Source: a virus
DNA: 64,000 bases
Virus record (IMG/VR): IMGVR_UViG_3300023174_000080
Span: 54,947 to 118,946 of that record
Strand: one strand, 5' to 3'
The stretch's first letter is position 1. Every line of letters starts with the position of its first letter. The position numbers were made by a program, and so were the translations under genes. The notes under the pieces are model-generated. The model did not search any database and was not told where the DNA came from. It saw nothing but the letters and a program-made list of their open reading frames with translations. Below, piece after piece: positions 23,844 to 63,410 of the stretch.

Positions 23844-23875
23844 GTATCATGTACAATTGCCACATTGGAGAACAA

Positions 23876-26800
23876 ATGAAAATTTTGCACTTGGCCGATA
23901 CGCATATTAAGAACTTGAAACACCATGATGAATATACGCAAATATTTAATGAAGTATACCGTATTGCCCGCGAACAGAGAGTTGATTTAATTATTCATTG
24001 CGGCGACATAGCTCATACTAAAACACAAATTAGTCCAGAGTTTGTTGATATGGCAAGTGAGTTCTTCAAAAATCTTGCCTCTATCGCTCCTACCCATGTA
24101 ATTCTTGGTAATCACGATGTGAATCTAAAAAATGATTCACGGCAAGATTCTATTACACCAATTATTAAAGCACTTAATTTATCAAATCTTTTTCTTCATA
24201 AGTATTCCGGCGAAATCTCAATTAATTCTCAATTTAGTTTGAATATATTGAGCATTATTGATGAGGACAAATGGGTTAAACCAAGCAACGCCGAAAAAAT
24301 TAATATTGGTCTTTTTCATGGTGCCATTTCAGGCATCACTACAGATACTGGGTATCAATTAGAGTCAGACGTTCATCTTGTAGATGTATACGATGGACAT
24401 GATTATGTATTTCTTGGCGATATTCATAAAACAAATCAAGCTGTAGATAAAGAAGGAAGAGTTCGTTATCCCGGCTCAACTGTTCAGCAAGGTTTTGCTG
24501 AAACGGTTGACAAAGGATTTTTAATTTGGGATATTCAGTCAAAAACTGATTATACGTGTACTCATTATGCTATCAAAAATCCAAAACCATATGTTAACAT
24601 TACTCTTGGAGATCAAGGTGAAGTTCCAATCGTTGATGTTGCTCCTAATGCTCGCATCCGTATTATTGCCGACAAAAGCATTTCATTGGATAAAATTAAA
24701 AAAGCAACTGATATTATCAAAACTAATTTTCAACCTGAAAGCGTAACGTTTATAAGTAAAGCGTCTGATAATAAAACTAGTCAGAGTGCTTCTGCCATAA
24801 CTCACGCAGATAATCTACGTGATTTAGGTTTTCAAGAAAAATTAATTCGTGAATATTTAAAAGAATATAAAGCCAATGAAGAGATTTTATTAAAAGTTCT
24901 TGAACTAAATAAAAAGTTCTCTTCTGCAATTGAAGAAGGAGAAGAAACATACCGCAATATTAATTGGAAATTAAAATCTCTTGAATGGGATAATCTTTTT
25001 AATTATGGCGAAGGTAATAAAATAGATTTCACTAATCTCAATGGCATTGTTGGTATATTTGGAAAAAACTATACCGGTAAATCATCAGTGATAGATGCGT
25101 TGCTTTATACAATTTTTAATACTACATCAAAAAATAATAGAAAAAACCTAAATGTCATAAATCAAAATGCAGAATCTGCTTTTGGTAAAGTCACAATTGA
25201 CATTGATGGTGAAGAATACCTTATTGATCGTAAAAGTGAAAAATATATTAAAAAAAGTAAAGGTGTAGAAGTAATTGAAGCCAAAACTGATGTTCAATTT
25301 ACGACTGATTCTGAATCTTTAAATGGCCTTGCGCGCAATGATACAGATAAAAACATTCGTCGTTTTTTTGGAACAGTAGATGATTTCTTTTTAACCTCTA
25401 TGGCTAGCCAATTTGGATATCTTTCTTTCATTACAGAAGGATCTACAAATCGCAAGCAGATATTGGCTAAATTTCTTGATTTAGAGACTTTTGAAAAGAA
25501 ATTTAAAATGGCTAAAGAAGAAAGTTCCGAACTTAAATCTCTTCTTAAAAAGTTAGAAGGGGTTAATTATGAAAAAGATATTTTCTTAGCTCAAGAAGAA
25601 ATTTCTAAAATAGAAATAGAAATTGAGATGAAAAAATCGTCTATTGATGATCTAAAGAATAATATTTCTCTAGCTAATCAATCTTTGGCTGAAATACAAG
25701 TAGCTATTAATAGCATGCCAACAGAAATAATTGATTATAAATCTCTAGAAATATCTTTGAAAAATTATATATTTAAACTTAATGAACTAACTGAGACAAA
25801 TAATAAATTACAAATTGATTGCGAAAAGAAAACCTTATTATTAAATGAGATCAATAATTTGTTGTCTAATATTGATGAAAAAGAATTAAGAAAAAAAGAT
25901 AGTGAACTTGCTTCTCTATCAAAAGAAGTTATTTCTTTAGAAAAAAAATATGATGTTCTAAGCAATGAACTCTCTAATAGAGATAATAAAATTAAACTTT
26001 TAAATGAAATTCCTTGCGGAGATTCGTATCCAAGTTGTAAATTTATTAAAGATGCTTTTGCTGCTAAGACAGGTTACAGCAGCATTTTTGATCAAAATAT
26101 TGAAATTAGTAATGATTTAAGTTCAAAAAGATCATCTGCGATAAGTTTAGAAGAAGAAGTAAAAGAACAGAATGATAGATTTAAGTCTTTAACGCAGAAA
26201 TGTTTTATTCTTAAGGATTCAATTGCTAAAAATGAACTTATGATTGAAAAAAATCGATCTTCTATACATATTACGGAAGGTAATATACAGACATTAAAGA
26301 AAAAGCTAGAAGAATACAATAAAAATAAACAAAAAATACAAAACTATCAAGATCTTTTATCTAAAAAAGATACTAAAAATAGTATTTTAACTAATTTTTC
26401 TAAAGAATTGAATTCTTTTGAGAAAGAATTATTGGAAATGTATAAAAATCATGGTTCTATAACTCAAAAATACGAAATTTTTGTTAAACAAAAAGAAGAA
26501 CTAGAAAAAATTCGTAAAGATTATGCTGCTTATGATTTATATCTATCCTGTATGCACCCTAATGGGCTTTCATATGAAATAATAAAGAGTAAACTACCAG
26601 AGATTAATCAAGAAATAGCTAAAATATTGTCTAATATTGTTGATTTCTCTATTTATTTAGAGAATGATGACGATAAACTAGATATTATGATTAAACATCC
26701 AAAATATGATGCCAGACCGCTTGAAATGGGAAGCGGAGCAGAAAAAACTCTTGCTTCAACGGCTATTAGATTAGCGCTTATAAGCGTTACGACTCTACCA

Positions 26801-27001
26801 AAACCAGACATTTTTGTAATGGATGAGCCGGGAACTGCTTTAGATGCAGAGAACTTAGATGGATTTACAAAAATATTAGATCTAGTTAAAAGCTATTTTA
26901 AAACTGTGATACTTATATCACATTTAGATAGCTTAAAAGATTGTGTTGATACGCAAATAATCATAGATCGTAAAGAAGGATATGCTTATATAAATCAATA
27001 G
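23876..27001 (+). CDS. fused SbcD/Mre11 nuclease - SbcC/Rad50 ATPase
   Basis: Metallophosphoesterase motifs DTH, GD, GNHD, HG, LGDIH; then Walker A GKNYTGKSS, Q-loop, coiled coil, signature SGAE, Walker B FVMDEP, ISH. The GGAG RBS favours ATG 23876. Confidence 0.92.
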   Translation: MKILHLADTHIKNLKHHDEYTQIFNEVYRIAREQRVDLIIHCGDIAHTKTQISPEFVDMASEFFKNLASIAPTHVILGNHDVNLKNDSRQDSITPIIKALNLSNLFLHKYSGEISINSQFSLNILSIIDEDKWVKPSNAEKINIGLFHGAISGITTDTGYQLESDVHLVDVYDGHDYVFLGDIHKTNQAVDKEGRVRYPGSTVQQGFAETVDKGFLIWDIQSKTDYTCTHYAIKNPKPYVNITLGDQGEVPIVDVAPNARIRIIADKSISLDKIKKATDIIKTNFQPESVTFISKASDNKTSQSASAITHADNLRDLGFQEKLIREYLKEYKANEEILLKVLELNKKFSSAIEEGEETYRNINWKLKSLEWDNLFNYGEGNKIDFTNLNGIVGIFGKNYTGKSSVIDALLYTIFNTTSKNNRKNLNVINQNAESAFGKVTIDIDGEEYLIDRKSEKYIKKSKGVEVIEAKTDVQFTTDSESLNGLARNDTDKNIRRFFGTVDDFFLTSMASQFGYLSFITEGSTNRKQILAKFLDLETFEKKFKMAKEESSELKSLLKKLEGVNYEKDIFLAQEEISKIEIEIEMKKSSIDDLKNNISLANQSLAEIQVAINSMPTEIIDYKSLEISLKNYIFKLNELTETNNKLQIDCEKKTLLLNEINNLLSNIDEKELRKKDSELASLSKEVISLEKKYDVLSNELSNRDNKIKLLNEIPCGDSYPSCKFIKDAFAAKTGYSSIFDQNIEISNDLSSKRSSAISLEEEVKEQNDRFKSLTQKCFILKDSIAKNELMIEKNRSSIHITEGNIQTLKKKLEEYNKNKQKIQNYQDLLSKKDTKNSILTNFSKELNSFEKELLEMYKNHGSITQKYEIFVKQKEELEKIRKDYAAYDLYLSCMHPNGLSYEIIKSKLPEINQEIAKILSNIVDFSIYLENDDDKLDIMIKHPKYDARPLEMGSGAEKTLASTAIRLALISVTTLPKPDIFVMDEPGTALDAENLDGFTKILDLVKSYFKTVILISHLDSLKDCVDTQIIIDRKEGYAYINQ

Positions 27002-37761: not shown

Positions 37762-38064
37762 ATGAGTAAGCGTCCAATTAATTTAGAAACAAAATTACCA
37801 AAAGGTTTACAGCCGTCATTAGAAAATAATGAATTATTGATTAATCGTTTTTTAAAAGCATGCAGTAAAGAATCCCTTGTACAATATTTATATGACTACT
37901 CAGCCTATACAAGAAGATTTGATAAACCAAGCGTATTAGAACGCCAACGTCAATTGAAATATAAACGTAATGCTAAAATAGCAAATTTGCAATCTTCTAA
38001 AGATCCAGAAGATAACTTAAAAAAGAAAAAACCCAAAGTTAAAAAGCAAATTAAGAAAGATTAA
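37762..38064 (+). CDS. rpsU: divergent ribosomal protein bS21-like protein
   Basis: ELLINRFLKACSKESLV...RRFDKPSVLERQRQ matches the bS21 pattern ExxLRRFKR..K.G.....YEKPS..R.R; position between protease and scaffold/MCP. Confidence 0.55.
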   Translation: MSKRPINLETKLPKGLQPSLENNELLINRFLKACSKESLVQYLYDYSAYTRRFDKPSVLERQRQLKYKRNAKIANLQSSKDPEDNLKKKKPKVKKQIKKD

Positions 38065-39613: not shown

Positions 39614-41374
39614 ATGAGTAACGTATTAGAGCGCCTCACAGAAGGCGTAGTTGAACGCAACATGTTGAATGAAACAAAGGCTGTAGTAGGTAAGTGGGAA
39701 GCTTCTGGTTTATTAGAAGGTTTAAAGACAGAACGTGAACGCAGCACAATGGCAGTATTGCTTGAAAACCAAGCAAAAGAATTACTCCGCGAAGCTAACA
39801 CAATGGCTTCTGGTGACGTACAAGGTTTCGCAGCAGTTGCATTCCCTATCGTTCGTCGCGTATTCGCTGGCTTAATTGCTAACGACCTTGTATCTGTACA
39901 ACCAATGAGCTTACCATCCGGTCTTGTATTCTTCATGGATTTCAAGCGTGGTACAGCAGTAGGTAACACAGGTGACCGCGTATTCCAAACTGGTTCTTCA
40001 TTCTTCGGTGATCGTTTAGGCGTAGAAATCACTGGTGGAGTTCGTTTAGATGGCGCATACACAGAAAAGGGTTTTTATAACTTAGCAAATGGTTATAACA
40101 AAAACCGTTATAATACCTTTGTACCAACTGGCAGCGTATCCGAAACAGCAGCATTTGCTCTTTCTGGCGCAAGCGACACCAACAAGGCATTAATTCGTTG
40201 GGATCCAGACCTTTTGGATGGCGTAACATATACTTCTGCTTCAGTATTACGCATTCCATTAACTGCTGTATCACAAAGTGCATTACTTGCTGAAAAAGAT
40301 GTATTTTCTCTTTCAGTAGCACAAGCAGCTGGCTATACTGCTGGCACCACTGGTGACGTAACAGCTTCTACCTTAACTGGTACAGGTACCACAGTAGTTC
40401 GCCGCTTAACAACCGTTGTAGAAGTTGCTGGCACCAAGTATTTGCAATTCGTTGTAGCAAGCAACAGCGCAGCTGCATTAGCAAGTGTTGTAACTGGTTC
40501 TCACGTAGCTCTTTCTTACCCAATCAAAGATAATTTGATTGGCGTAGGCGATCATGCTCTTGGCGCTATCAAGGGTGCAACACCATGGGGTTTTGAAGAT
40601 TCTTCCGCAATTCCAGAAGTTGAATTAAAGGTAGACAGCTTCTCTATCACTGCTGGTACCCGTAAGCTCAAGGCAGCTTGGACCCCAGAATTAGGTCAAG
40701 ACTTGAACGCTTATCACAATCTCGATGCAGAAGTAGAATTAACTTCTATCCTTTCTGAACAAATCGGTCTTGAAATCGACCAAGAAATCTTGAACGATCT
40801 TGTCAAGGGTGCTACAGCTGGCACCAAGTATTGGAGCCGTCGTCCCGGTAAGTTCGTAAACCGTGCAACTGGTGCAGATATCGGCGCAGGCGCTTATACC
40901 GCTCCACCAGACTTCACTGGTAACGTAAGCATGTGGTACGAAACACTCGTTGAAACAATCAATGATGTATCCGCAGCAATTCACCGTAAGACATTACGCG
41001 GCGGTGCAAACTTCCTCGTATGCTCACCAGAAGTTGCTAATATCTTGGAATTCACCAGCGGTTTCCGCGCTTCAGTAACAAACGATGCTGAAAAGGGTAC
41101 TGTAGGCGCAGTTAAAGTTGGCGATATGAACAAGAAGTGGGATGTTATCGTACACCCATACTTCCTCCGCAACGTAATTCTCGTTGGTCGTAAGGGTGGA
41201 AGCTTCTTAGAAAGCGGTTACGTCTATGCACCATACGTACCACTACAATCTACACCAACCATCTTCGATCCAAACACCTTCTCACCACGTAAGGCAGTTT
41301 TGACCCGTTATGGTAAGGCAATGGTTCGTCCAGACATGTACGGCCTCGTAGTTGTAGAAGATTTGGAAGGCTAG
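39614..41374 (+). CDS. major capsid protein (T4 gp23-like) with large insertion
   Basis: AVLLENQ, PIVRRVF...VSVQPMSLPSGLVF, TRKLKAAWTPELGQDLNAYHNLDAEVEL, YAPYVPL, TRYG; high-expression codon bias. Confidence 0.97.
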   Translation: MSNVLERLTEGVVERNMLNETKAVVGKWEASGLLEGLKTERERSTMAVLLENQAKELLREANTMASGDVQGFAAVAFPIVRRVFAGLIANDLVSVQPMSLPSGLVFFMDFKRGTAVGNTGDRVFQTGSSFFGDRLGVEITGGVRLDGAYTEKGFYNLANGYNKNRYNTFVPTGSVSETAAFALSGASDTNKALIRWDPDLLDGVTYTSASVLRIPLTAVSQSALLAEKDVFSLSVAQAAGYTAGTTGDVTASTLTGTGTTVVRRLTTVVEVAGTKYLQFVVASNSAAALASVVTGSHVALSYPIKDNLIGVGDHALGAIKGATPWGFEDSSAIPEVELKVDSFSITAGTRKLKAAWTPELGQDLNAYHNLDAEVELTSILSEQIGLEIDQEILNDLVKGATAGTKYWSRRPGKFVNRATGADIGAGAYTAPPDFTGNVSMWYETLVETINDVSAAIHRKTLRGGANFLVCSPEVANILEFTSGFRASVTNDAEKGTVGAVKVGDMNKKWDVIVHPYFLRNVILVGRKGGSFLESGYVYAPYVPLQSTPTIFDPNTFSPRKAVLTRYGKAMVRPDMYGLVVVEDLEG

Positions 41375-52729: not shown

Positions 52730-55700
52730 ATGAGTGAACAAAATGCTGCAAATGCTAACACTAATGTTAGTAATCAACCAACATCAGATGGTTCAAGACA
52801 ACTGTATGAAAATCAACAAACTAATACTAGTGAAGTTGTAGCGTATGCATCACCTGAACAATTAAGACAACTAGAATCTGATCAACAAAGAAAACAGGAA
52901 ATAGATGAAATAATATATAAAGAATCTATTAAAGCTAGTGATGAAGCATATATAAAAAAAGAAAAAGAATTAAGAGCAAAATCCACTTCTTCATCACCTG
53001 AAGAAGAAAAAAAAATTAAAGATGCAGCGACTAAAGCTGCTGATGAAGCATATAAAAAAAAGACATCAGAGTTACAAAAAAAATATAAAAAATACTATCC
53101 TGAACAAAAATCTTCTGGTGTTTCAGGGGCAGCGAAGGGACAAGCTTCTAAATCTAACAAGGTTGATCCTATTAGAACACGCCTAAATGAACAAGCTGCT
53201 TTGATGCTTAATATTGATAAAATAATTAATGCAAAAGCTGTTAAACCAACAAAAAAACAAGAGAAAAAAAGAACAGAAATAGAATATAAAAATTTTTATG
53301 TTACTAGGCTTAAAGAATCTGGGCATACAACTATTACATCATTATTAACCAAGCATAATTCAATGAATGCTTTTTTTAATAAACTACCATCTCAAGTATT
53401 AAGTTTGCTTGTTCCATCTATAAAATTATATAAAGTGTTTTATCCAAAATTAATAAATGCTAAAAATGAATCTTCGCCAGATAAAAATGATAAAACTAAA
53501 GAAAAGCCAATTAGTTGGAGAATTCCATTTGATGACATTCCAATACAATATAGAAAACAAACTAGTAATGTACCACCTCAAAGTGTAGATGAAATATTAA
53601 ATGGAAATGGTTTTCTACATACTGTTGGTATAAAATCATTTAGTTATTCTTATCAAGGAAACAATCCCGCTACAGCAAACACACTTGTATCGGCTGAATT
53701 AAAATTATTTTTTCAAAGCCCAGAAGAATTAATGAAAGAATTTAATATTGTGCATGAAGGTATTAATGGTAAATATACTTTTGCCTATACAGATCTTATA
53801 AATTCAGCCACTAGAACAGAAAGGCAAGAAGGTAAGTTGGATGATACTCCAAATGAAAATTATTATAGAATTAAAATAATTTGCGGCTATTCAGATAGTA
53901 ATAATGATTTAATAAGAAATATATTACTTAATGAAAATTACAATAATGATAAAATTACAGAAGTGCTTGCTGCCTTATCATTATCTAGAGCAACTTTTTA
54001 TTTATCACCATATTCATATGATATATCTTTTAATGAAAGCGGAGCAGTTGATTTATCTATTAAATGTAATGCTTCTGTAGATAAAATGTTATTATCAGAA
54101 GAAGCTGATATATTTTACACGACCGAAGAGCTTAAACAAGCAAGGCATTATATTAAAGCTTTAAATACATTTGTAAAAAATAAAGATAGAAAACCAACCG
54201 AAATAAAAACAAATGGAGAAGCGTGTGTAGCAGATGCTAATGAAAAATCTATTTTAAAAGAGTTTTTTCAAAAATATCCAGAAGCAAAAAAAGATGAAAA
54301 ATATTTAAAACAAAGATTGTATAATTTTAGAAAAAATTCCTATAATTCTATTTTTAAAAAATTAATTGGTGCCGGTAAGGAAAAACAAACTCATGATAAT
54401 GTCGGTATCTACAGTGCTTATGTTAATAATAAAATTCTTTCAATACTTTCAGACGAAAATAATATAGATTCCAGAGAAAATGATTTAAGAAATCAAAATA
54501 GTTTTAAAGGAGTATATGCAGAAAATATAAATGACCCTTTGACTATAAAAAGAAATTTATTAAAAGGCGAGCATAAAGACGAAGATGCTAAAGGAAAAGC
54601 TAATTCACAAAGCATGGATGAACAGGCTATGAAAGAATTAGATAAACAAACAAACTCACAAGCTTCTAAATCCAGATATAATGGCTTTTCTCAAATTAAA
54701 TTTATGTTTTTGGGAGATCTTATAGACGCAGCATTAGATTGTTTAGATAATTTAGATAACGATCATGATAGACCAAGAATAGTATTAGGTGAGATAACAA
54801 TGGAAATACCGACCATTAATAATATTGGAGAAGAAGAAAGCAAGCATCTTCTTACGGTAAATCTTGCCGATGTACCAATAAGCATGAAATTGTTTGAACA
54901 ATTTTTTATTAAAAAAGTTGTTAAACAAATGAGAGATAAATATCCGGCAATGGAATTTATTAAAGATGCAATATCTGAATTAATATTTCCCGCTCTAAAT
55001 CCATCAGTGTTTGGTAAATCTTATACTTTTAATTCAAAAATAAAATATTCTATTTTATCGCTAAATGTCGGTATGTCTAATGGTAGAACCGACCCGGTTA
55101 CTGGATTAGATGTTAATAGTAAAGATTTTGGTAATGGTGAGCACATCATTGATGATAAAAAAATAGAGCAATTACAGAAACAAGTAACAGATAATCTAGC
55201 GTCTATAAAAGAAAGCTTAGACAACTTAAATTATATTTTTATTTATTGTTCTAGTGGTATGCCTAGAATTGCAAATCCATCGGAAGAAGACGATATAAAA
55301 AGAGGTATTTATCATGTAAGAATGGGCCGTGACTCTGGTCTTATAAAAAAAATTGATTTTACAAAATCCGAGATACCTTTCCAGAGAGAATTCATGGCTA
55401 GAAGAGAAGGTAATAAACGTGGAACTTCCATAAAACAATTATACAATGCAAATATAAGTATGTTTGGAAATAATATATATGTTCCCGGTGATTATATTTA
55501 TATTGAACCTTATTTTCTATTAACTACAAATAAAACTCTTGATTTACAAGATTCGCTTGGATTAGGTGGATATTATATGGTTCTTAAAGTAAATAGCTCT
55601 ATAGCAGAAGCCAGTTTTGATACTAAACTAGAGTGTATTTTCCAAGGACAATTATATAAAGATGGTGATAAGAAAAAGCTTGCAACTCCTAATACAGATA

Positions 55701-61470: not shown

Positions 61471-62400
61471 ATGTCATTATCTGTTTGCTGCCAGTGGCTT
61501 TCTTCTCGTACAAAACGTGATGGTTCTATAGTTTATGAAAATGTTCTTGACGAAAAAAACCTCCAGCTTGGAGCGTTTAAAAACGGCAAATATTCAGAAC
61601 AAAAAATTATTGAAACTTATCACAATAATGTCGATGAACACATTAAGATTTTTCCTAAATTTCTAGAAAATAATATTAAGTCTTTCCGGCTTAGTAGTTC
61701 TCTTTTTCCGTTATTTGAGTTTTGCTCTCATCTTGCAAAAGAAGATATTTCTCTAAAGAATAAGCTTGCTTATCTTGGTGGTTTGTTTTATTCTCACGGC
61801 ATCCGTGTAACAACACATCCCGGCCAATTTACTGTTATCTCTAGTGATAGCGATAAGGTAATCGAAAATTCTATTCGTGAACTTGAATATCATGCGTGGA
61901 TTTTTGATACTATGGGTTTTGAACAAACGCCATATTATGCAATTAATATTCATGGCGGCAAAAAAGATAGAACTAACAAAATTATAGAAGTATTTAAATC
62001 ACTACCAACAAATATTAAGAATCGGTTAACTCTTGAGAATGATGAAAAGTGTTATAATGTGAAACAGTTATTGGAGATACATGAGCAAACAAATATTCCT
62101 ATCGTCCTTGATTCTCATCACTATACTTTTGGAAGTAATGATCTATCTTTCATAGATGCTTTTTTGGAAACCTCTAAAACATGGAAAAAAATTAAACCAT
62201 TACAGCATCTTTCCAATACAGAACCGGGAATGGAAAATGGCTCATACGCCCAACGTAGAAGCCATTCCAACTTTATTCACCATGTTCCAGACATACAATT
62301 AGCAGCAATTCGTGATAATTTGATTGATGTCGATGTAGAAGCTAAGATGAAAAATCTTGCGGTATTACAGATGCGTAAAAAATTTGATATCAATGTTTAA
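61471..62400 (+). CDS. uvsE: UV damage endonuclease
   Basis: FRLSSSLFP, RVTTHPGQF, INIHGG, RLTLENDE, VLDSHH, HLS, HS, DVEAKMK. Confidence 0.93.
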   Translation: MSLSVCCQWLSSRTKRDGSIVYENVLDEKNLQLGAFKNGKYSEQKIIETYHNNVDEHIKIFPKFLENNIKSFRLSSSLFPLFEFCSHLAKEDISLKNKLAYLGGLFYSHGIRVTTHPGQFTVISSDSDKVIENSIRELEYHAWIFDTMGFEQTPYYAINIHGGKKDRTNKIIEVFKSLPTNIKNRLTLENDEKCYNVKQLLEIHEQTNIPIVLDSHHYTFGSNDLSFIDAFLETSKTWKKIKPLQHLSNTEPGMENGSYAQRRSHSNFIHHVPDIQLAAIRDNLIDVDVEAKMKNLAVLQMRKKFDINV

Positions 62401-62578
62401 ACCAAAACTTGGTCAGCTAGTTATATATACTCATCCTTATTTAAATCAGGGACAGTCTTATTATGCTATAGTGACAGACATACAAGACGATGATATAATA
62501 CAAATAGCGTTCTGTGACCAAGATTGGATTTTATACGTAAGCATTAAGTTTCTAGAACTAGCATCAGATGTTGACTAA
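62393..62578 (+). CDS. small SH3/KOW-like hypothetical protein
   Basis: MFKPKLGQLVIY...AIVTDI; start probably at ATG 62393. Confidence 0.45.
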   Translation: MFKPKLGQLVIYTHPYLNQGQSYYAIVTDIQDDDIIQIAFCDQDWILYVSIKFLELASDVD

Positions 62579-62599
62579 AGGCTGATTTGTTGTTAGTAT
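62571..62599 (+). promoter_or_regulatory. sigma70-type promoter for the deaminase gene
   Basis: TTGACT-N17-TAGTAT with TGn extension. Confidence 0.7.
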
Positions 62600-62624
62600 G
62601 CTTTTACTTTCAAAGGAGAAAGAC

Positions 62625-63096
62625 ATGGATACCGATTCGACGACGACGAGCTATACGAAGAAGCACAGCGAGATTACTGATACTCATATTGCAAGAGGGG
62701 AGGTATCAAAAAAGATTCGGAGGTATCTTCCAGCTGGCTAAAAAGCTTGCTAATGCATCTACTTATGGTAATTTTAGACATGGTGCGGTTCTTATTCGCG
62801 GTGGTGCCATTGTTGGCATGGGAATCAATTCAGAGCGGTATTGTTCAGTTGGAAAAGATTATCGTCCTGAAGAAAAGGGAAACGCCACATACCACGCGGA
62901 AATCAAGGCGCTACTCAACATTCCGCGACATGTGACTAAGGGTTCTATTATGTATGTTGCTCGCTGTTCAAAGAACGGTAACGATGATAGAATGAGTAAG
63001 CCGTGCGCTATGTGCCATGCAGTTATGGAAGAACGTGGTATTAAGAAGGTTTATTATACTGTAGATAATGAGGTTGTTGGAACTTATAAATTTTAA
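62625..63096 (+). CDS. zinc-dependent CDA/dCMP-type deaminase, probably made via a +1 frameshift at 62727-62730
   Basis: HGAVL, HAE and PCAMC are in frame +1 relative to the RBS-led ATG at 62625, whose own frame stops at 62741. Confidence 0.75.
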
Positions 63097-63098
63097 TT

Positions 63099-63410
63099 AT
63101 GAATAATACAGAAAATGAATTGCTTTTTGTTAAAGAACAAATAGAGACATTAACTGATGATATGTCTAAATTGCGTTTACAAATCATATCTTTGATAGAC
63201 CAAAATGGTGAACTGTATAAGGCTTTAGAAAAAACAACTTATTGGCTTTTGAATGTTGCAATTAAAAACAATATTGATTTTGAATGTCTAAAAACAAACA
63301 AAGAGATTCTAGGAGAAAAAAGATATTTAGAAATAGCAGAGGCGGCTGAACATCATATAAAGCAAATTAAGGATTTCCAAGATGGATGGAAAAAAAATTC
63401 TCATAATTGA
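63099..63410 (+). CDS. hypothetical coiled-coil protein
   Basis: 103-aa ORF. Confidence 0.5.
   Translation: MNNTENELLFVKEQIETLTDDMSKLRLQIISLIDQNGELYKALEKTTYWLLNVAIKNNIDFECLKTNKEILGEKRYLEIAEAAEHHIKQIKDFQDGWKKNSHN

Follow-up and report, generated by a model that had tools for sequence, protein, structure and literature searches.

Ribosomal frameshifting of the type found in prfB, the gene for release factor 2 (RF2), combines a short open reading frame (ORF) in frame 0, the main body of the protein in the +1 frame and an internal Shine-Dalgarno (SD) sequence located exactly 3 nt 5' of the slip codon CUU. In prfB itself (CUU_UGA_C) a UGA stop codon occupies the A site, so that the level of RF2 feeds back on the shift. 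The parts of the review by Atkins 2016 (PMC5009743) that deal with +1 shifts give 3 nt as the distance from SD to slip codon and CUU_U as by far the most efficient site, and the part of the PRFect article (PMC10885494) that deals with the RECODE collection states that all its CUU-stop +1 sites belong to prfB. Two further kinds of +1 site are described in those parts of the review. In Ty1 and ABP140 of yeast (CUU_AGG_C), a tRNA-Leu slips +1 from CUU with a sense codon in the A site, and a short N-terminal part is fused to the enzyme body; Ty1 needs the rare and slow codon AGG and has no SD. The cps and tsh genes of Listeria phage PSA provide examples of programmed +1 frameshifts in phage genes, where the slip codon is the Pro codon CCC (CCC_UGA, and CCC_UCC with a pseudoknot), a stop codon or pseudoknot stimulates the shift, and a second, extended structural protein is made beside the main one. 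The only deaminase frameshift mentioned in the same parts of the review is an incidental -1 event in a Bacillus cytidine deaminase. In the present study, we describe a deaminase gene divided between two frames on a 64,000-nt stretch of DNA from an uncultured lake phage (IMG/VR record IMGVR_UViG_3300023174_000080, positions 54,947 to 118,946; hereafter, the window), for which comparison with its relatives argues strongly for a conserved, programmed prfB-type +1 ribosomal frameshift that operates in a new gene family and has a sense codon occupying the A site.

The window constitutes the 3' 64 kb of a 118,946-base virus record, which is 65% complete and has a GC content of 32.1%. On its + strand, the Shine-Dalgarno sequence AAGGAG (62613..62618) is found 6 nt 5' of an ATG at 62625, from which frame 0 encodes the 38-residue peptide MDTDSTTTSYTKKHSEITDTHIARGEVSKKIRRYLPAG and ends at the stop codon TAA at 62739-62741. 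The +1 frame is open from 62587 to 63096 and carries a PF00383 deaminase (Pfam, E 1.9e-13). Codons 1-35 of the frame-0 leader (62625..62729, +), which read MDTDSTTTSYTKKHSEITDTHIARGEVSKKIRRYL, correspond to the N-terminal part of the deaminase on the basis of homology to the N-termini of relatives with a continuous gene, and the +1-frame body, QLAKKLA...HAE...PCAMC...YKF, comprises 121 codons and a TAA (62731..63096, +; PF00383, PHROG 174). At the junction between the two, the codons CGG (62718-62720) and AGG (62721-62723) contain the internal SD-like stimulator GGAGG (62719..62723, +; GGAGGT including the next base), which lies 3 nt 5' of the slip codon and is followed by the spacer and E-site codon TAT (62724..62726, +), fixed in length and variable in its letters among the relatives. 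The slip site CTT-C (62727..62730, +), recognised by its conservation in relatives, consists of the P-site Leu codon CTT (62727-62729) and the skipped C (62730), and the +1 frame then begins with CAG (62731-62733). Frame 0 continues instead as CCA GCT GGC TAA (62730..62741, +), with the sense codon CCA in the A site, and this continuation ends the 38-residue unshifted product. When CTTC is read as a single step, a fusion of 156 residues is obtained (P0001), in which ...KKIRRYL is joined to QLAKKLA.... The arrangement had been pointed out in an earlier note on this DNA, and the AAGGAG, the ATG at 62625, the 38-codon frame, the location of the deaminase in the +1 frame and the junction were all confirmed to the base.

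According to the proposed mechanism, ribosomes would initiate at ATG 62625 and translate 35 frame-0 codons, after which, with the tRNA-Leu on CTT in the P site, a fraction of them would shift +1, skip the C at 62730 and resume at CAG 62731. The shifted product would be a CDA-fold zinc deaminase of 156 residues, and the unshifted ribosomes would read CCA GCT GGC, reach the stop codon and release the 38-residue peptide. By analogy with prfB, the internal GGAGG(T) is expected to pair with the tail of the 16S rRNA in elongating ribosomes, and a Leu anticodon with G34 is expected to re-pair from CUU to UUY. We infer the ribosomal nature of the event, its efficiency and the exact tRNA mechanics from sequence, and the last of these is held with less confidence than the frameshift as such.

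Relatives of the gene were collected at the level of both protein and DNA. A protein search with P0001 yielded 87 matching proteins, and DNA was read for the best 80 of 490 tblastn-confirmed relatives in IMG/VR, for 28 more IMG/VR loci and for 49 metagenome loci. Classification of the 75 close loci, which reduce to 62 distinct sequences, showed that 59 carry the frame break and three are continuous; one locus with AAGAGG (L125) was put in the broken class by hand, and another, in which the contig begins inside the gene (L102), stands outside the classification. The break and the signal that the earlier note had likened to the prfB cassette (SD, 3 nt, CTT-Y) are therefore kept in 59 of the 62 distinct loci. 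Beyond these 59, two more broken loci were found (L152, identical to L153, and L159), and all 54 of the more distant loci (L029-L082) are continuous. As for cultured phages, blastn of positions 62300-63400 against 50,697 phage records gave no match and tblastn with P0028 at 1e-10 detected no relatives, and a scan of GTDB genome contigs gave 26 pattern matches, none of which was confirmed.

The continuous relatives are 145-149 residues long and read MDxDGPQ...SKKxRRYL-QLAKK, and P0001 aligns with them from end to end. Since the fusion predicted from the frameshift, KKIRRYL-QLAKKLA, is exactly the sequence found in these relatives, the proposed frameshift product gains support from proteins that are made in one frame. 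Other, shorter proteins amongst the relatives read ...GGIFQLAKK... and have at least a dozen differing N-termini. GGIF is the +1 reading of CGG AGG TAT CTT C, and these proteins therefore stem from the same broken gene, in the form that gene finders give it; in protein databases, the broken relatives are called with lengths of 114-140 residues. A separate observation concerns many of the distant continuous homologues (L029-L031, L034, L046, L052, L057, L067, L075 and L077-L082), where the first ATG is the Met of ...RYM-ELAKR. This Met occupies the position of the slip-site Leu, and the in-frame sequence upstream of it is conserved (…ADRYHKYKGKVxRYM…); these homologues probably have a non-ATG start, and their present starts are likely mis-called.

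A recent pseudogene, or a sequencing or assembly error that introduced one extra C, has to be considered here, given that a single additional base breaks the frame and that three close relatives are continuous. The chance of this is, however, negligible. Positions 62720-62740 are covered, with 0-4 substitutions and no indel, by Logan contigs of four runs that each belong to a different other study (X2, X4, X5 and X7); these contigs show the same base, which rules out an assembly error at the extra C, the point for which the earlier note had proposed a check against raw reads; none of the four is the probable source sample, and as contigs drop rare variants, a minority form may exist. Moreover, 59 distinct sequences, drawn from many assemblies and diverged to as little as about 55-60% protein identity, have this break in common, and the ratio of nonsynonymous to synonymous differences (pN/pS) downstream of it is 0.07-0.13. 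The extra base alternates between C and T, yet it is never lost in broken lineages.

The signal itself is uniform in its layout across the 59 broken loci, to which the following counts refer. The hexamer before the spacer is CGGAGG in 56, AGGAGG in two and AAGAGG in one, so that GGAGG is present in 58. The spacer measures 3 nt in every locus (TAT 48, TTA 4, TTT 3, ACT 2, CTA 1 and CTT 1), 55 loci have CTT as slip codon and the other four have CTC, and the extra base is either T (30) or C (29), a purine being found in none. The first +1 codon is CAG (53) or AAG (6), never CAA or AAA, and the 0-frame A-site codon is TCA (30), CCA (23) or CAA (6), with no stop codon in any locus. Around the first +1 codon, the overlap of the two frames can be as short as 24 nt on the upstream side and 6 nt on the downstream side, and with so short an overlap the change of frame must fall at the motif. 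The 0-frame stop follows 6-66 nt past the skipped base (9 nt in 36 loci), and the tail that precedes it is not conserved.

Conservation at the site extends to the nucleotide level. Per-base entropy is close to zero over CGG AGG TAT CTT, the 12 nt of RRYL, synonymous positions included, and neighbouring third positions vary by 0.6-2.0 bits. As a control, GGAGG is found at the homologous place in none of 38 distinct distant continuous homologues, where the two Arg codons are of many kinds and CGG AGG never occurs; in the genome record, CGG and AGG account for 2% and 5% of Arg codons, respectively. The pattern GGAGG-N3-CTY-Y occurs twice in the 118,946-base record, and its sole other instance, outside the window, is at G000:C1:39823 (GGAGGAAACTCT). 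Two variations around the core are also seen. The first +1 codon always ends in G, though 85% of the Gln codons in the genome are CAA and 81% of the Lys codons are AAA, and this fixed G may belong to the signal. In a sub-group of loci (L026/L027, L028, L121, L129 and L152/L153), GGAGG-TAT-CTT-Y is replaced by GGAGG-TTA-CTC-C.

That the skipped base is always a pyrimidine is what would be expected from a G34 tRNA-Leu re-pairing on UUY. The same product could also result from a correction at the level of RNA or of a special tRNA, i.e. from transcriptional slippage that removes one base or from a tRNA of the phage or its host with an expanded anticodon loop, which would read CUUY as a single four-base Leu codon, and a four-base decoder could suit the pyrimidine-only extra base equally well. 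We regard this as very improbable. The T run is only 2-3 long, far under the homopolymer lengths that cause polymerase slippage, and the genome record encodes only tRNA-Ala(tgc) and tRNA-Ser(gct), although with a record that is 65% complete a tRNA could be missed. Neither model accounts for the invariant GGAGG at exactly 3 nt. With RNAalifold, no conserved RNA structure was found from -60 to +90 in 58-59 aligned loci: the downstream region gave 0.0 kcal/mol, and the site itself a trivial 4-bp hairpin (-1.43; shuffled means -0.02 to -0.34).

A further element had been suggested 20 nt upstream, where the earlier note saw a second SD-like sequence in front of a -1 slippery heptamer. Both the second GGAGGTATC (GGAGG at 62699-62703) and the heptamer A_AAA_AAG (62708-62714) are indeed present. 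As a functional element, however, the -1 cassette was rejected: a second upstream GGAGG is found in five of the 59 distinct relatives, the in-phase heptamer occurs in one, which is the window itself, and the -1 frame misses that of the deaminase.

When compared with the known systems, the phage site shares with prfB the short frame-0 ORF with the main body in +1, the internal SD separated from the slip codon by exactly 3 nt on its 5' side, the CUU slip codon, followed by U in 30 of the 59 phage relatives, and the lack of downstream RNA structure; the spacer UAU is also that of E. coli prfB, according to the logo legend in Atkins 2016 (PMC5009743). It differs in having a sense codon (TCA, CCA or CAA) and never a stop in the A site, the 0-frame stop being located at least two codons later, in that half of the phage loci have C after CUU, and in that the gene is a phage deaminase. 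As there is no stop in the A site, a feedback through RF2 is impossible. The earlier note had proposed that the shift could respond to the supply of Pro-tRNA; this did not hold, because the A-site codon differs among the relatives and is a common one, CCA being the commonest Pro codon (61%), which excludes a Pro-tRNA sensor as a feature of the family. The resemblance to Ty1 and ABP140 lies in the slip of a tRNA-Leu from CUU with a sense A-site codon and in the fusion of a short N-terminal part to an enzyme, but the phage site has common A-site codons and a bacteria-specific SD in place of the rare, slow AGG of Ty1. Similarly, PSA offers a precedent for programmed +1 frameshifts in phage genes, but in the deaminase the shift gives the sole functional product and uses an SD. 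Our literature search found no frameshift in a phage deaminase, although supplementary lists of predicted frameshift clusters could hold one. SD-stimulated +1 frameshifting at CUU has been known from a single gene family, prfB, in which a stop codon and RF2 feedback belong to it, and the deaminase very probably represents a new gene for this kind of shift, with a sense A site.

Evidence on where translation starts bears on another explanation, in which two separate products are made, the 38-residue leader from ATG 62625 and a shorter deaminase whose translation begins within the +1 frame, from TTG 62689 or from a non-canonical codon, with GGAGG as a possible ribosome-binding site. Gene callers annotate the relatives in this manner (114-140 residues), in 35 of the 59 loci the open upstream part of the +1 frame has at least one ATG, GTG or TTG, and in some distant relatives the first ATG matches the L of RRYL. 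We nevertheless consider separate starts quite improbable. The open upstream +1 frame is devoid of ATG, GTG and TTG in 24 of the 59 loci, and a start with an SD core is available in only six. The codon 10 nt past GGAGG is TTA, CTA, CTT or CTC in 43 of the 59; with a non-start Leu codon at initiation distance in so many loci, an internal start that uses GGAGG as ribosome-binding site was rejected. The earlier note had judged the TTG at 62587, from which the ORF list began the deaminase, to be an implausible start, and this is borne out by the loci without any start codon and by stops that interrupt the +1 frame 5' of the slip site in 319 of 325 pairs of sequences in one group and 77 of 78 in another.

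The leader behaves as part of the deaminase: it is homologous to the N-termini of the continuous relatives and is under purifying selection, both of which argue against separate starts. An ATG after an SD core of at least 4 nt opens it in all 59 broken loci, and it extends over 18-35 codons ending in ...S(K/N)(K/R)xRR(Y/F/L/T)L. In the two groups of sequences, its variability is highest at frame-0 third codon positions (12.4/13.5/22.7 and 11.1/10.1/21.3 for positions 1/2/3), with pN/pS of 0.49 (325 pairs) and 0.41 (78 pairs). For the first 25 codons of the deaminase body in +1, pN/pS is 0.13 and 0.07. Both frames are thus coding, and the two-frame layout is conserved together with a signal that is conserved at the nucleotide level.

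The properties of the predicted protein also favour one product that spans both frames. PF00383 matches the fusion with 54.9 bits (cut-off 25) over residues 29-145, starting at profile position 2 and running across the junction 35|36, and it matches the +1 ORF alone with 51.6 bits from profile position 8. In an AF2 model built on an alignment of continuous homologues (33 sequences; mean pLDDT 89.5), a strand at 20-23 is followed by a helix at 29-42 that runs through the junction. A Pfam domain and a predicted helix that both span the junction argue against a deaminase that begins within the +1 frame. The H-A-E and P-C-x-x-C motifs are present, with H90, A91, E92, P126, C127 and C130 invariant in alignments of 29 and 33 sequences. 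The best profile-level assignments are to dCMP deaminases: PHROG 174 dCMP deaminase matches at 9.1e-19, and the PDB profile search gave 4p9c of cyanophage S-TIM5 (2e-8), 2hvv of S. mutans (1.2e-7) and T4 Cd, 1vq2 (1.4e-7), and TadA-type tRNA deaminases matched more weakly (8e-4 or weaker). Foldseek similarly placed T4 Cd, S. mutans, S-TIM5 and human DCTD (2w4l) at the top (E 2e-5 to 1e-4, TM 0.5-0.6). These four enzymes share the CDA fold and the HAE and PCxxC motifs with the phage protein, but identity to them is only about 21-25%, the phage motifs read HAEIKA and PCAMCH, and a need for frameshifting is reported for none of them. On these comparisons, the nearest relatives are phage and cellular dCMP deaminases, and the assignment of substrate is putative.

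The history of broken and in-frame forms was followed in a tree of 105 distinct C-terminal sequences (84 broken and 21 continuous, five of the latter being outgroup rows), from which proteins with a called N-terminus past the junction were left out. The outgroup is continuous, and the 16 continuous ingroup rows are scattered amongst the broken ones. The tree requires 13 changes of form, of which five are forced by well-supported branches, and a topology that unites the 16 continuous rows in one clade is rejected in the AU test (lnL difference 238.7, p 3.8e-8). Three in-frame close loci were read as DNA (L016, identical to L132; L083; and L101). L016 reads CGA AGG TAT CTT TCG TTA and its broken sister L089 reads CGG AGG TAT CTT T CAG TTA; a single base appears to have dropped out directly after the slip site, with Ser replacing Gln. 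The SD is weakened to GAAGG in L016 and reads GGAGA in L083, and L101 retains GGAGG. From these sequences, in-frame relatives tend to lose the signal, the SD having decayed in two of the three revertant loci. Non-shifting prfB genes likewise lose the signal, as stated in the parts of Atkins 2016 (PMC5009743) that concern prfB, and the repeated interconversion with the same product, accompanied by decay of the SD when it is not needed, is a pattern that prfB and the phage deaminase have in common. The in-frame revertants restore exactly the fusion, which is again difficult to reconcile with separately started products.

Against the programmed frameshift, the following points have to be weighed. 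The case for it is built on sequence comparison. An ATG is present somewhere in the upstream +1 frame in 28 of the 59 loci, and the six loci with a +1 start near a 4-nt SD core could initiate independently, so that independent initiation is possible in some members. In the four CTC-C loci among the 59, and in L152, re-pairing from CUC to UCC would involve a mismatch in the middle position. The A-site codons CCA and TCA are common in the genome (61% of Pro and 22% of Ser codons), and the slow A site that is usual for +1 shifts is therefore not evident; the efficiency could be low. The helix at the junction in the AF2 model is not independent of the continuous homologues that made up its alignment. 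Finally, the tree was computed on 121 columns, and 46 of its 102 inner branches are unresolved. Taken with these points, a conserved and programmed +1 frameshift is still what we consider highly probable for this gene family.

The surroundings of the gene are those of a phage genome. Every large ORF of the window is on the + strand, and matches to PHROG and Pfam include portal, major head, tail sheath, SbcCD-like, gp32-like, RecA, UvdE and 5'-3' exonuclease proteins, the deaminase locus being situated between the genes for UvdE and the 5'-3' exonuclease. Upstream of the deaminase, a 73-residue ORF (62357-62578) shares 44 nt with the end of UvdE; neither Pfam nor PHROG gave a match for it. The promoter TTGACT-N17-TAGTAT that the earlier note had placed in front of the leader is present (62571..62599, +), as a weak, promoter-like sequence with 9/12 matches and TG before the -10 element; it does not rise above chance, as seven such sites are found in the region and 4.8 +/- 2.2 in shuffled sequences. 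A better promoter-like match, GTGACA-17-TATAAT (11/12, with TG before the -10 element), is located at 62471-62499, inside the 73-residue ORF. Elsewhere in the window, a 1050-residue ORF (23849-27001) combines SbcD-like (residues 8-347) and SbcC-like (218-1048) PHROG matches, i.e. the nuclease and the ATPase are fused.

Some hints about the host are given by the genome. Of 87 crude ORF starts, 42 follow an SD core (background 5.7%). The nearest cultured relative of the major head protein (39614-41371) is that of Flavobacterium phage vB_FspM_immuto (48.5% identity over 71%), followed by those of Microcystis phage Mel-JY01 and Rhodothermus phage RM378; these capsid relatives hint weakly at which hosts the group may infect. 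The anti-SD of Flavobacterium is sequestered, and in F. johnsoniae frameshifting on prfB is low and rises on mutation of bS21, according to the portion of Naeem 2024 (PMC10798248) that treats prfB. A phage-encoded bS21 as a link to anti-SD control was not supported: PF01165 was not found in the genome record, 65% complete, at E up to 1, and for the ORF at 37762-38064 no Pfam match was obtained for 37762-38061 even at E up to 10.

As regards purpose, a likely role of the frameshift would be to set the amount of deaminase made from a well-translated leader. A more far-reaching proposal, which we hold to be rather unlikely, is that this is the first natural RF2-type cassette outside prfB, acting as a switch that responds to the condition of the ribosome itself and not to a release factor or an amino acid. 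Since no stimulator is conserved apart from GGAGG(U), which matches the 16S tail perfectly, the output of deaminase would track the freedom of that tail. If the hosts are Flavobacterium-like, the shift could be nearly off on native ribosomes and come on only after the anti-SD has been freed by infection, and the deaminase would be timed in this way. The frequent in-frame reversions would, if this is true, mark lineages or hosts that do not need anti-SD control. Apart from this proposal, a deeply conserved prfB-type cassette in an unrelated phage enzyme, with a sense A-site codon, would show that the SD-tension mechanism is a general and portable recoding device and that selection can maintain it without a slow stop codon. 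A natural series of variants exists in the spacer codons, in CUU/CUC, in C/U and in the in-frame revertants with decayed SDs. For annotation, the finding means that gene callers truncate or mis-start this deaminase gene, and for the biology of the phages, it points to a tight control of a deaminase that would feed or edit the nucleotide pool.

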